Shown: piece after piece, positions 3,247 to 64,000 of the stretch
How positions within the stretch are numbered: position 1 is the stretch's first letter
Layout of the letters: each line of letters opens with the position of its first letter
Source of the DNA: Candidatus Oxydemutatoraceae bacterium
GTDB lineage: Bacteria > Pseudomonadota > Gammaproteobacteria > Poriferisulfidales > Oxydemutatoraceae
Direction of reading: 5' to 3'
Assembly (NCBI GenBank): GCA_965237985.1
Contig: OZ250161.1
Location: 185,691-249,690 of the forward strand
Length of the DNA stretch: 64,000 nt
Notes under the pieces: generated by a model
Told to the model about the DNA's origin: nothing
The model's input: the letters and a program-made list of their open reading frames with translations, nothing else
Database searches by the model: none
Position numbers and translations under genes: made by a program

Positions 3247-3821
3247 TCAAACAGACCTTGTCCAAATTATCCTTCCAATACTGGCGGCACTCGTTTCTTT
3301 CAGTTTTGAGTCTGGATGGCATGAACTCCAGAACACTGTTGTGCCAAGACTTATTCTCCTTTCAGCGCCAGCCGCTCTCGCCGTCTTGATTGTGGAGGCA
3401 GGAAAGTAACTGTGTCCCTCTCTTTCCGCCTCGTCTTCAGACGCGTCAAAGACGTGGCAGAGAATGGTGCTCAATTCCCAATTGTCCTGGTATGGACATC
3501 CTTCTAAATGATCGGTTCTTTCCGGTTCTGTCTGTTGTTCACGTTGAGAACCCTTTACCAGGGGTGCCTTGGAGAAATCTTGCCTTGCGCTTGCAGAGCG
3601 TTGTTGACTTTCAGGCGGGTTGTCCGTCCCCCGCATCCACAGAGACGTCTCTCTCCCGCGTAATCGGTCTGGTTTTGGGGTTAATCTTTCAAACAGTGTA
3701 CGACCTACTGTCTGAAGGAGCGTGTGATGACATGAGCCTTGCCATCGTCACCAAGTCCGACATCTCCAAATCTTCGGGCACCACGAACATCGCTGTAGCC
3801 AAATTTGATTTCCATACTCTC
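3247..3821 (-). pseudogene. Degenerate paralog of the 3857..4984 gene: 36-codon N-terminal stub 'MEIKFGYSDVRGARRFGDVGLGDDGKAHVITRSFRQ' ending at TAG, with residual similarity downstream
   Basis: The first 36 codons (3711..3821) are carried by the 184-bp direct repeat 3697..3880, which is identical to 4863..5043. After the TAG the same frame reads 'VVHCLKD*', where the intact copy reads 'WTVHCLKYY'. Confidence 0.4.
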
Positions 3822-3880
3822 CTCCGTCTATTTATCAGGACAAAAAAATAATTTTCTCAATCTTCAAAGCAAGTAGATCC
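3697..3880. repeat. Direct repeat copy A (about 184 bp) carrying the promoter/RBS region and first 36 codons of the RFGDVG-family gene; copy B lies at 4863..5043
   Basis: Near-identical sequence '...ctgtctgaaggagcgtgtgatgacatgagccttgccatcgtcaccaagtccgacatctccaaatcttcgggcaccacgaacatcgctgtagccaaatttgatttccatactctcctccgtctatttatcaggacaaaaaaataattttctcaatcttcaaagcaag' occurs at both positions. Confidence 0.9.
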
Positions 3881-4984
3881 CCGGGAAGAAACACGCCTAC
3901 GGCTACGCATCACCGAGTTAACTGGGTAGATTGCAAAACATCTGAAAACGAATAGCGAGCACGGTAAGCGCATCATTTTCTGCCACAGCCCCCCCTTAGG
4001 CAACTGAAAACCATCCCCGGATTCATCAGAACTGCCAGCGCGTGCGAACTCCATGGCCACGGACATGTTTCCGAGTTTTTCATCCGTTGTCACCAGTTGA
4101 CTATCTTTGAACTCCAACTTTTCAACCATCTGGCATGCCAGCTCAGCTGTGAAACCTGCTGGTACGGGCATCCGTGATTCTGCAGCTATGCTTACGAATT
4201 TTGGCTGTCCCTCGAATAGACTAGCACTAGCGAACTTATCACTTGGTGAGCGTAAGGGCTGCGTTTCGAAAGAATCTGCAGATCCTTTCGAATATGCGCA
4301 GCAGGTATAGTATGTCAGGAAAGCCACCGCTGCCTCTTTTCGTGCCGCGTCTTCTGTGCCTTTTTTCGCGTTTTTCCATTTCGGTCGCAATTTCGTAATT
4401 TTCTTCTCGATGCGCCTGTTCATCTCAACACCCAGGATTGTGTTGAATCGCACTTTTTCTCCTTGGTCTAGGCCTGTGAGATTAGCCATTGATAGCTCAC
4501 TGCCGTTCAGAAGTTTTTCAGCATCCATCTCGCCGTGAACGTCATCCCACGAGGTTCTACACGAGCGCGTGCCGGCTTGTGTAGAGGGGATTTTATTGTC
4601 AGTTCGCTCGGCTGCGATCAAAGACCGAGCAGGGGTGGGTGTATTTTCAGGTCCACGGTCTGCCTGATCCTCTGCTGTTTCCTTCGACTTCGGAAGAAGT
4701 TCAGACAGTTCACGCAAAAGCATTCTTCTGTTTCCGATATGGGGTGATGTTCCACCGCTGCTTGGGGTGGTTTCTTTACCAGCAAGCAGACCCTGATAGA
4801 TTTCGCGTCGCTGTTCTTTTATCCGGTTTCGGTAAGCAACGAAGGGGCTGTAATATTTCAAGCAGTGTACTGTCCACTGTCTGAAGGAGCGTGTGATGAC
4901 ATGAGCCTTGCCATCGTCACCAAGTCCGACATCTCCAAATCTTCGGGCACCACGAACATCGCTGTAGCCAAATTTGATTTCCAT
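3857..4984 (-). CDS. Hypothetical protein, 375 aa, with a conserved N-terminal 'RFGDVG...RSF' module shared by two truncated paralogs; function unknown
   Basis: Long ORF with an RBS ('ggaggagagt' before ATG). The N-terminus 'MEIKFGYSDVRGARRFGDVGLGDDGKAHVITRSFRQWTVH' recurs at 3711..3821 and, diverged, at 5163..5348. The protein is hydrophilic, with no signal peptide and no motif I recognise. Confidence 0.6.
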   Translation of the reverse strand: MEIKFGYSDVRGARRFGDVGLGDDGKAHVITRSFRQWTVHCLKYYSPFVAYRNRIKEQRREIYQGLLAGKETTPSSGGTSPHIGNRRMLLRELSELLPKSKETAEDQADRGPENTPTPARSLIAAERTDNKIPSTQAGTRSCRTSWDDVHGEMDAEKLLNGSELSMANLTGLDQGEKVRFNTILGVEMNRRIEKKITKLRPKWKNAKKGTEDAARKEAAVAFLTYYTCCAYSKGSADSFETQPLRSPSDKFASASLFEGQPKFVSIAAESRMPVPAGFTAELACQMVEKLEFKDSQLVTTDEKLGNMSVAMEFARAGSSDESGDGFQLPKGGLWQKMMRLPCSLFVFRCFAIYPVNSVMRSRRRVSSRGSTCFED

Positions 4985-5043
4985 ACTCTCCTCCGTCTAT
5001 TTATCAGGACAAAAAAATAATTTTCTCAATCTTCAAAGCAAGC
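4863..5043. repeat. Direct repeat copy B (partner of 3697..3880)
   Basis: Sequence identity with copy A, read directly from the window. Confidence 0.9.
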
Positions 5044-5162
5044 AGCGCCATACCGGCACGATATATAGCCAACGGAATTCATCAGAGGTCCTGGGGGGAA
5101 CGCGCCCCACGCCGATCATTAAGCAGGACAAGGTCATGATGAAACTTCTGCGAACCCCTCAT

Positions 5163-62390: not shown

Positions 62391-62546
62391 TTCTGGTCTT
62401 TTATGGTGCGGGTCTTTCTTTTTCGGGAGACGAAAATGTCACGCTGTATTTGCGAAGCAATACAGTATAATCGTCTCGATTACCGGCGGCATTGCTATGT
62501 TTTTTCTTGGCAAAGATTGCTGATTTCAAATGGAGAATAATTCATC

Positions 62547-63089
62547 ATGTCAAGAGGTGTTAATAAAGTCATTCTAGTTGGAAATCTGGGTCAGGATCCT
62601 GATTTGCGTTACGGGCCCACGAATGGTTCAGCGGTGTGTAGTGCGTCCCTGGCGACGAATGAAACCTGGAAAGACCGTGCGACGGGCGAAAAACACGAGC
62701 GTACGGAATGGCATCGTCTGGTGTTTTTTGGTCGTCTTGCTGAAATTTCCGCCGAGCATTTGCGTAAGGGGTCGCAAGTGTATGTGGAGGGACGTCTAAG
62801 GTCGCGAAAGTGGGTAGACAATTCTGGTGCTGAGCGGCATCAGACGGAAATCGTGGTCAGCGAAATGCAAATGTTGGGTGGTCGTCCCGAAGGGTTCACC
62901 CGCCACGACGAACAACAACCTTCTCACAATACTAAAGAGGGGGACAGGCCTGACGCCGCACAGCAGCAACATGGTAATGTTGCCGCTCCACCCCAGTTTT
63001 CGACAAGAAGACCAGAGCGTTCGTCTCCCCGTGGTTTCTCCGAACAGGCGCCGGCGGAAAGCCTGGAAGACGACGATATTCCTTTTTAG
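62547..63089 (+). CDS. ssb: Single-stranded DNA-binding protein
   Basis: '[18 protein letters not shown]...[29 protein letters not shown]...' is an OB-fold. A Gly/Gln/Pro-rich tail ends in the acidic tip 'DDDIPF'. Confidence 0.95.
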
Positions 63090-63316
63090 AAACCGAACCT
63101 GGACAGCTGTTCCGGAATAGTCTTTCGGTTTTGTGAGTAGCGAGTTTTGAGTTGTAAAGAGGTATTGTCTGTTCGGGCTTAGGTGTGTGCTGAAATGCAG
63201 AATCGTTTTTTCAACGGTATTGCCTGGGATTTCTTTGCTTGGAGTGGTATTCCGCTGACCCACAGCCTGCAGTGCACCCCTCTCGTTAACTTGGACAAAT
63301 GGTGTCGCGGCCGAGG

Positions 63317-64000
63317 TCCACTTTCGTAACCAGGAGGAGCGTGGTTTTGAGATGTTTTCGCTCTGGATTCGCCGGATCGTTGAGACACAAAACCGGTTTC
63401 CCGGCTTTTTTCCCAGAGTGATTTTCCGGTAGCTGGCATGTTTGGCATCAATGCTCCGGTTCTGGTAACCGGGGCAAGTGGGTTTATTGGAAGTGCTCTT
63501 TTGCGAGACTTGGTGGAGCACGGCTTTTCGGTGCGTGCCTTGGTGTGCAGCGAACCGGCGCACAAGCTACCTGGCGTCAGCTATTGCCGTGGCCCATTTT
63601 CGTAACCAGGAGGAGCGTGGTTTTGAGATGTTTTCGCTCCGGATTCGCCGGATCGTTGAGACACAAAACCGGTTTCCCGGCTTTTTTCCCAGAGTGATTT
63701 TCCGGTAGCTGGCATGTTTGGCATCAATGCCCAGGTCCTGGCAACCGGGGCAAGCGGGTTTATTGGAAGTGCTCTTTTGCGAGACTTGGTGGAGCACGGC
63801 TTTTCGGTGCGTGCCTTGGTGCGCAGCGAACCGGCGCGCAAGCTACTTGGTGTCAGCTATTGCCGTGGCCCATTTTCGTAACTAGGAGGAGCGTGGTTTT
63901 GAGATGTTTTCGCTCCGGATTCGCCGGATCGTTGAGGCACAGAACCGGTTTCCCGGCTTTTTCCCCAGAGTGATTTTCCAGTAGCTGGTATGTTTGGCAT
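63317..64000. repeat. Tandem repeat of at least 3 units of about 280 bp (continues past the window end), duplicating the leader and first approximately 56 codons of an NAD-dependent epimerase/dehydratase gene
   Basis: 'ccattttcgtaaccaggaggagcgtggttttgagatgttttcgct...atgtttggcatcaatgc' recurs at about 63317, 63594 and 63870. Confidence 0.9.
63429..63602 (+). pseudogene. 5' stub of an NAD(P)-dependent epimerase/dehydratase; a second stub starts at 63713 and a further copy at 63990
   Basis: 'MFGINAPVLVTGASGFIGSALLRDLVEHGFSVRALV' shows the Rossmann 'VTGASGFIGS' motif and then runs into the next repeat unit with 'CRGPFS*'. Confidence 0.6.

Follow-up and report, generated by a model that had tools for sequence, protein, structure and literature searches.

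Tandem arrays in a housekeeping region

The window analysed here, a stretch of 64,000 nucleotides of contig OZ250161.1, is an ordinary gammaproteobacterial housekeeping region that carries ten tandem arrays (A1 to A10 in Table 1) and one dispersed pair of direct repeats. Its genes include, in the first part, hemB, aroE, leuCDB, asd, truA, several tRNAs, slt, metY, ssrA, trxB, aat, fdxA, an AddB-like nuclease and purL, and further along a desaturase, cysQ, lptD, surA, pdxA, rsmA, apaG, apaH and ssb; the GC content is ~53%, and ~82% of the DNA outside the arrays is coding. All ten of the tandem arrays listed in the initial annotation of this DNA were recovered with Tandem Repeats Finder (TRF) and self-BLASTN. 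Their periods range from 61 to 355 bp, with 2.5 to 5.3 copies and identities between units of 77 to 99.3%, and together they occupy 7,372 bp, corresponding to 11.5% of the window. We have compared this figure with those of two controls: 20 trinucleotide-block shuffles of the window contain no arrays, and a 50-kb segment of Escherichia coli K-12, which includes the same lptD-surA-pdxA-rsmA-apaGH operon, has 0.7% array DNA. The arrays are therefore real and far above chance expectation, and their density is indeed, as had been claimed, abnormal for a bacterial housekeeping region. Only units of medium length are over-represented: repeats with periods of 6 to 39 bp show no excess with respect to E. 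coli or to the outgroups described below, and for this reason a general proneness to slippage was rejected as an explanation. Five of the ten unit lengths are divisible by three, which is not significant.

The self-comparison of the window yields 37 off-diagonal high-scoring segment pairs, all of them direct and each confined to one locus; with the exception of the dispersed pair, they all fall inside the ten array loci. No similarity between different arrays was found by self-BLASTN of the window, each unit being a copy of its own locus, and no Rfam family occurs inside the arrays, as the Rfam matches in the window are limited to tRNAs and the transfer-messenger RNA (tmRNA). A mobile or selfish repeat family spread over many sites, such as a miniature inverted-repeat transposable element, a repetitive extragenic palindrome or bacterial interspersed mosaic element, a satellite, or a CRISPR-like (clustered regularly interspaced short palindromic repeats) element, could account for the presence of many repeat loci in a short stretch, but the loci share no sequence, every unit is the end of an adjacent gene or a spacer, the units abut with no unique spacers between them, and there are no inverted termini. 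Self-BLASTN rules this explanation out, and we give it virtually no credence. The units are also different from those of a dosage amplification, which would include at least one complete gene: units of 61-355 bp contain gene ends only.

Table 1. Position and composition of the repeats in the window (aa, amino acids; RBS, ribosome-binding site; L006, a second contig of the same species)
Feature	Position	Strand	Units	DNA covered
A1	18621-19472	+	5 units, 160-183 bp; TRF also gives a 331-bp two-unit higher-order period	Last ~115 nt of alpha/beta-hydrolase (yheT-like) gene, intergenic region, RBS and ATG of cytochrome b561 gene (cybB)
A2	25773-26681	-	2.8 units, 327-337 bp	5' end (HARE-HTH domain) of Mrr-like restriction endonuclease gene and ~65 nt upstream
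A3	30749-31409	+	3 units, 222 bp	48 nt upstream (with RBS) and first ~170 nt of fdxA
A4	34880-35928	-	3 units, 346-355 bp	5' end of DM13-domain gene (signal peptide region, ~205 nt) and ~150 nt upstream
A5	36605-37623	+	5 units, 201 bp	Last 92 nt of small HTH_31 (XRE-type) gene (36256-36696) and 110 nt downstream
A6	44403-44618, degenerate units to ~44700	+	3.3 clear units and degenerate ones, 61-70 bp	Wholly intergenic, upstream of fatty-acid desaturase (alkB-like) gene 44787-45968
A7	49310-49731	+	3.5 units, 118-122 bp	Upstream DNA and first ~70 nt of cysQ (49661-50500)
A8	55086-56481 (55126-56481 by TRF and self-BLASTN)	+	5 units, 271 bp	3' end of pdxA (stop overlapping GTG start of rsmA) and first ~190-225 nt of rsmA
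34-bp duplication in rsmA	56310-56379	+	Perfect tandem	Inside the last, otherwise functional rsmA copy
A9	59788-60357	+	5.3 units, 108 bp (36-aa Sel1 repeats); 216-220 bp higher-order period	In Sel1-repeat gene
A10	63310-64000 (cut by window end)	+	276-bp units, 2.5 copies visible; 3.0 in L006	Upstream DNA and first ~150 nt of NAD-dependent epimerase gene, intact start ~63990
Dispersed direct repeat	3677-3873 and 4844-5042	-	96.5% identical, 1167 bp apart (self-BLASTN)	Upstream region and first 43 codons (MEIKFGYSDVRGARRFGDVG...) of 375-aa gene 3857-4984

Turnover of the arrays within and between species

Another contig, from a second strain of the species (ERZ25766962, here L006), covers positions 44236-64000 of the window at 99.5% identity; all five arrays of this stretch are present in it, and their units have identical limits. 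All the length differences larger than 10 bp between the two sequences are located in arrays, and so are 8 of the 11 insertions or deletions, those outside being short (1, 1 and 7 bp); point differences are also clustered in the arrays. Copy number between isolates, a comparison proposed in the initial annotation, does vary, as A6 and A8 differ by one unit each: at A6 L006 has one more 59-bp unit, while at A8, where L006 has 4 units, the window is longer by 306 bp, which represent one 271-bp unit and the 34-bp duplication. Changes of 2-4 bp are found in A7, and one GTCC in the Sel1 array (A9).

The units of an array differ from each other by point mutations, an earlier observation that the unit alignments bear out, and adjacent units are the most alike (99.3% identity between units 1 and 2 and 98.9% between units 3 and 4 of A8, 98.5% between units 2 and 3 of A5). 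In the inner units of A7 and A8 identity to the source flank is only ~65% over the leftmost ~40 nt, as against ~97% to the edge copy over the remainder; because of this difference, we believe that an old first duplication may have been followed by homogenization of everything except the outer edge. The same frameshift is shared by two units in two of the arrays, as had been reported: a +1 shift in units 1 and 2 of the fdxA array, and GTCC in two of the Sel1 units. As judged from these alignments, the pattern fits old origins with continuing turnover. The microhomology at the junctions is short, and imperfect in several arrays: the pair GCGGCCACG/GTGGACACG, previously pointed out at the cybB array, is present at A1, a stretch of 11-14 nt at A5, and CGACC at A8. 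Inspection of the junctions reveals no common motif or structure.

The sample available for a wider comparison consists of the 64 kb of this genome and of pieces of 14-24 kb from relatives, with 28 kb from OZ243039.1. The closest of these relatives have a PurL 82% identical to that of the window, and beyond them identity drops to ~51%. They are represented by closed circular metagenome-assembled genomes (MAGs), among them OZ244118.1 ('Ca. Porisulfidus', 2,997,607 bp) and OZ243039.1 ('Candidatus Oxydemutatoraceae bacterium', 1,918,571 bp). Since their contig names carry coverage and circularity tags in the style of metaMDBG, and since a Tree of Life genome note on a sponge describes PacBio HiFi sequencing with metaMDBG assembly and lists Porisulfidus among sponge symbionts (PMC12988363), we take these genomes to be HiFi assemblies from sponge metagenomes.

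Arrays make up 11-17% of the syntenic 24 kb in three co-occurring Porisulfidus strains, whose purL genes are 98.5-99% identical, but they lie at other gene boundaries than those occupied in the window. At the 3' end of fdxA the three strains have 4.9, 20.9 and 17.0 copies of a 70-bp unit; the 3' end of the AddB-like gene carries 3, 3 and 2 copies of a 442-bp unit, and across the start of purL all three strains have 2 copies of a 316-bp unit. There are 3 to 6 arrays in each Porisulfidus locus of 21-24 kb, and a single array of 1.8 kb in a locus of 14 kb (L012). Other loci of the group show the same density (191-bp × 5 at the start of the hydrolase gene, 224-bp × 5 at the start of slt, 127-bp × 10.8, and 466-bp × 2.5). 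By comparison, the hydrolase/cybB boundary, which is the site of A1 in the window, has an 8-bp spacer and no array in one relative (L011). The boundary between pdxA and rsmA is arrayed in both species, but the limits of the units differ (221-243 bp versus 271 bp in the window), and inheritance of a single array is not shown by these data. It had been anticipated that the same density in related genomes would make the arrays a known property of the clade rather than something novel; a density of this order is what we find in Porisulfidus, and the arrays are thus a clade property. No published description of the trait in sponge symbionts, LS-SOB or Porisulfidus was found in our literature searches.

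The trait belongs to only part of the clade. OZ244118.1 (loci L002/L004) and OZ243039.1 (loci L003/L005) have purL genes that are ~92.7% identical at the DNA level, yet array DNA amounts to 15-17% of the sampled regions of the former and to 0.5% of the 28 kb sampled from the latter; two outgroup MAGs whose contig names are also in metaMDBG style, and which apparently come from the same pipeline, have no array DNA. The low values in OZ243039.1 and in the outgroups tell us that we are not dealing with a product of the pipeline. They also bear on the more general suspicion of an artefact of assembly or library preparation, in the form of metaMDBG mis-assembly of HiFi reads, chimeras from low-input amplification, or strain variants stitched in tandem. 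While all these genomes are metagenome assemblies (PMC12988363), assemblers do not create units that differ by 1-23% with precise, repeated junctions; arrays of up to 1.4 kb are much shorter than the reads; the same arrays, identically delimited, recur in independent contigs and samples with their own single-nucleotide polymorphisms and unit numbers; and the same pipeline returns 0-0.5% array DNA in L003/L005, L008 and L009. We regard an artefact as hardly credible.

Gene boundaries and the origin of the arrays

The initial annotation held that every array spans a gene boundary. This is correct for the units of 8 of the 10 arrays, which span the start or the end of a gene, but not for A6 at 44.4 kb, which is intergenic, nor for the Sel1 array A9, whose in-frame units are internal to a gene. 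In the boundary arrays the intact gene is always contiguous with an edge of the array, while the other copies are truncated fragments, some of them frameshifted. In order to evaluate this distribution, ten segments of the observed unit lengths were placed at random on a gene map curated by hand from open reading frames (ORFs), family hits and orthologous gene calls, with a coding fraction of 82% outside the arrays. On average 6.5 of the 10 random segments fell wholly inside a gene, as compared to 1 of 10 observed; one or fewer internal segments occurred in 0.04% of the trials (P ~0.0004). Among the random segments longer than 150 bp that were not internal, the ratio of boundary-spanning to intergenic ones was ~3-7:1, which is of the same order as the observed ratio of 8:1, although somewhat below it. 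Since random placement minus the internal events gives a ratio of the observed order, no targeting of boundaries needs to be invoked. The bias itself is statistically established; as to its cause, selective removal of duplications that break genes would be enough, the arrays appearing to target boundaries because gene-internal duplications are purged, while boundary-spanning or intergenic ones persist. Such a filter, which was not among the explanations initially offered, is probably the simplest reason for the bias. The gene-internal 34-bp duplication in rsmA, which is perfect and private to one strain, is what would be expected if events of this kind arise and then vanish.

Overall, these results suggest that the arrays are probably locus-specific tandem segmental duplications, a mutational by-product rather than a device, in sponge-associated Gammaproteobacteria that include the species of the window and 'Ca. 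Porisulfidus'. In the sequence of events that we favour, a segment of 45-470 bp would first acquire an adjacent second copy when template switching or slipped mispairing takes place at direct repeats of 5-14 nt that match imperfectly, as the junctions suggest. Once two copies exist, whole units are gained and lost, as both the strain comparison and the similarity between units show, via misaligned template switching or unequal sister exchange; inner units remain alike, outer edges diverge, and copy number depends on the strain. Duplications within a single gene would destroy it and be purged, while those that span a start or a stop, or are intergenic, would leave an intact gene at the edge and persist. 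Finally, under weak selection in a host-restricted symbiont, the arrays may have built up to more than 10% of the DNA. In E. coli, post-replication gaps are the site of a RecA-independent form of template switching, by which direct repeats can be deleted as well as expanded, and which is normally kept in check by Uup and RadD (PMC7145654). The features of our arrays that bear on this pathway are the range of unit sizes, the microhomology at some of the junctions, and the fact that arrays both expand and contract; in particular, units of 45-470 bp would fit its size class. The analogy is with direct repeats of ~100-800 bp located close together (Lovett laboratory; Romero et al. 2020, PMC7145654), but that work is a laboratory plasmid assay with engineered repeats, and a role of the same pathway here is conjectural.

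Several points weigh against this interpretation. The placement test relied on a gene map drawn by hand; there is no convincing microhomology at the junctions of A3, A4 and A10; the 'genome-wide' extent of the arrays is an extrapolation from 64 kb and from the 14-24 kb pieces of relatives; and the loss of a suppressor or collapse factor (of the Uup/RadD type, single-strand exonucleases, or efficient RecA-mediated collapse), which may be added to weak selection in the last step, is conjectural. The presence of a pdxA/rsmA array in both species could signify a hotspot or an old shared array. More generally, a mechanistic hotspot at gene ends would yield the same static pattern as selection. According to this alternative, duplications arise mainly at the starts and ends of genes, due to encounters between replication and transcription, to promoters, or to terminator hairpins; the boundary excess is indeed strong, and pdxA/rsmA arrays with different unit limits in two species are suggestive of recurrence. 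This tenet is challenged by the boundary to intergenic ratio, for which random placement minus internal events already predicts a value of the observed order, by the existence of internal events (the 34-bp rsmA duplication and the Sel1 units), and by the lack of a visible common motif or structure at the junctions. On balance we consider hotspots unlikely.

A different hypothesis, put forward in the initial annotation, is that the arrays have a regulatory or contingency function, as they multiply promoters, RBSs and start codons, so that copy number would tune the neighbouring gene. Copy number does vary between strains, and six of the arrays take in DNA upstream of a gene. The units of A6 each carry TGGTCGTGCGCG..GGTTGACG, with a -35-like TTGACG beside the conserved TGGTCGTGCGCG motif; a near-consensus sigma-70 promoter-like match (TTGACA-17 nt-TATAAA) follows at ~44682-44710, upstream of the desaturase gene. 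However, a promoter scan flagged no extra sigma-70-type consensus promoters in A6. Arrays are found also at 3' ends (A5 in the window, the fdxA and addB-like genes in the relatives) and between genes, their positions differ between species, the genes affected are ordinary housekeeping genes, the fragment copies are frameshifted, and the intact gene is unaffected by the number of units; the 34-bp duplication in one strain breaks the frame of rsmA rather than tuning the gene. The claim of a regulatory use is thus not sustained, and we deem it quite improbable. The other possibility initially raised, that of a lineage-specific regime of slippage or recombination under weak selection, is supported by the 11-17% array DNA at every locus sampled from the species of the window and from the three Porisulfidus strains, by the different boundaries occupied, by the strain-dependent copy number, and by the clean controls.

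A bolder version of the mutational interpretation is that a heritable change, for example the loss of a suppressor such as Uup, RadD or single-strand exonucleases, has brought about a mutator state for medium-unit tandem duplications, which inflated these genomes by more than 10% and perhaps explains much of the difference between 3.0 and 1.9 Mb. We put this forward very tentatively, and lean against it. OZ244118.1 and OZ243039.1 do differ in size by 1.1 Mb, and the pairing of an array-rich genome of 3.0 Mb with an array-poor sister of 1.9 Mb is no more than suggestive of an effect of the arrays on genome size. If the mutator state were true, the two sisters would constitute a natural experiment for the genes that control the dynamics of tandem duplications and the expansion of bacterial genomes.

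Compactness is the rule in bacterial genomes, where a tandem duplication normally disappears within generations. The closest described exception is Ehrlichia ruminantium, in which locus-specific tandem arrays actively expand and contract (PMC10710844). As in the present case, there are many independent local arrays, whose units measure tens to hundreds of bp, located between genes and at gene ends, with truncated gene copies and a number of units that expands or contracts between strains; their effect on genome size is measurable. The arrays of E. ruminantium were reportedly described in Collins 2005 PNAS and in Frutos et al. 2006 J Bacteriol. There are also differences: E. ruminantium, an alphaproteobacterium, is AT-rich and obligately intracellular, and its coding fraction is very low (~64%), while our sequences belong to a gammaproteobacterial sponge symbiont of ~53% GC that is ~82% coding outside the arrays. 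In addition, the boundary bias is here demonstrated statistically, and a sister genome is array-poor in the region sampled. The kind of phenomenon is therefore known, but the trait has apparently not been described in sponge symbionts, as we found no paper on it.

Other systems offer partial parallels. The homogenization of inner units, the diverged edges, the similarity of neighbours and the higher-order periods (331 bp in A1, 220 bp in A9) are reminiscent of the concerted evolution of ribosomal DNA and satellites, but these arrays are tiny (2-21 units), consist of gene fragments, and have no function as arrays. With bacterial variable-number tandem repeats and contingency loci they share a tandem copy number that differs between strains. 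Contingency repeats, however, are usually units of 1-9 bp, or in-frame units, located in surface or virulence genes or in promoters, where they switch expression; here the units are of 45-470 bp, lie beside housekeeping genes, and involve 3' ends as well. Organelle genomes, which are small and under weak selection, accumulate boundary-spanning tandem duplications too (tandem duplication-random loss in animal mitochondria, repeat-rich spacers in plastids), and these survive only if one copy stays intact; the duplications there usually comprise whole genes, whose loss leads to changes in gene order, while no rearrangement is seen in our case.

From this perspective, the sponge symbionts represent a second lineage, unrelated to E. 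ruminantium, in which tandem duplications persist, diverge and keep changing, and they indicate that the bias of bacterial genomes towards deletion can be locally overturned. The availability of closed HiFi genomes from an array-rich and an array-poor sister (3.0 and 1.9 Mb) makes the cause unusually amenable to testing. There are also consequences for annotation, as the arrays spawn spurious ORFs and gene fragments, and can break genes (rsmA). The trait was probably invisible in earlier MAGs of sponge symbionts, and would have escaped notice because short-read assembly would collapse the arrays.

Individual arrays and neighbouring features

In A1 the first unit belongs to the intact hydrolase gene, and the last one contains the start of the intact cybB (19462). 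The third unit of A3 runs into the intact fdxA (31241-31564). The intact DM13 gene of A4 (34575-35087) uses unit 1, while the outermost unit shares 77-81% identity with the rest. A5, which lies ~195 bp upstream of purL, ends with a partial unit of 11-14 nt, AG(G/C)CACTGCTT, which corresponds to its junction microhomology. Two long ORFs run across its five units, one of 548 aa on the plus strand (36159-37805) and one of 371 aa on the minus strand (36424-37539), and both have only spurious Pfam matches; the former was rejected as a gene, being an artefact of read-through across in-frame 201-bp units. At A6, the motif GGTCGTGCGTGCGCGGGG precedes the promoter-like match upstream of the desaturase gene (44660-44710), and is also carried by each of the 61-bp units; this repeated motif could be the binding site of a regulator.

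The CGACC at A8 is the true junction microhomology of that array. In the window the 34-bp duplication shifts the frame of rsmA after codon ~30, leaving an N-terminally truncated ORF (56342-57079) that lacks the conserved KKxLGQHFL segment, while L006, which does not have the duplication, encodes an RsmA of 263 aa. Given this shift of frame and the retention of the full-length protein in L006, rsmA (ksgA) may be inactive in the strain of the window. The gene of A9 is a Sel1-repeat gene (PF08238, E = 3e-30) with in-frame repeats of ~36 aa, but it is split across three reading frames (59632-60558) by two 4-bp GTCC insertions, one of which is absent in L006. Its units are 84-97% identical at the DNA level; because of this similarity, and because two of them are frameshifted, A9 is best explained as a recent amplification within a broken gene. 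It seems to encode a repeat protein of the eukaryote-like type, in a sponge symbiont, that is decaying or rapidly changing. At its position in a Porisulfidus relative (L007, 14800-16172), between a czcB-like gene and a major facilitator superfamily transporter gene, there is an array of 1.4 kb (127-bp × 10.8).

The eleventh locus of the initial annotation, a dispersed pair, is confirmed as such; it is a duplication of the 5' end of a member of a minus-strand gene family, and not an array. The copy just downstream of the 375-aa gene is a 43-codon stub closed by a stop codon, and a third N-terminal paralogue, 44% identical, is found at 5288-5169 on the minus strand. The 375-aa protein has no Pfam or NCBIfam match, and the MEIKFGYSDVRGARRFGDVG proteins may constitute a small lineage-specific family.

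A2 is part of a degraded island adjoining ssrA. Next to this gene is an ORF in which an integrase Arm-DNA-binding domain is joined to a HARE-HTH unit, and then comes the Mrr-like restriction endonuclease; the region 25288-27435 resembles what is left of an island that had integrated at ssrA. The tmRNA gene itself (27081-27435, minus strand) encodes an unusual tag peptide, DETYSLPAAA. Finally, almost all the 2-kb bins of the window have a positive GC skew and most of the genes are on the plus strand; on account of both features, the whole window seems to lie on one replichore with a strong gene-strand bias.

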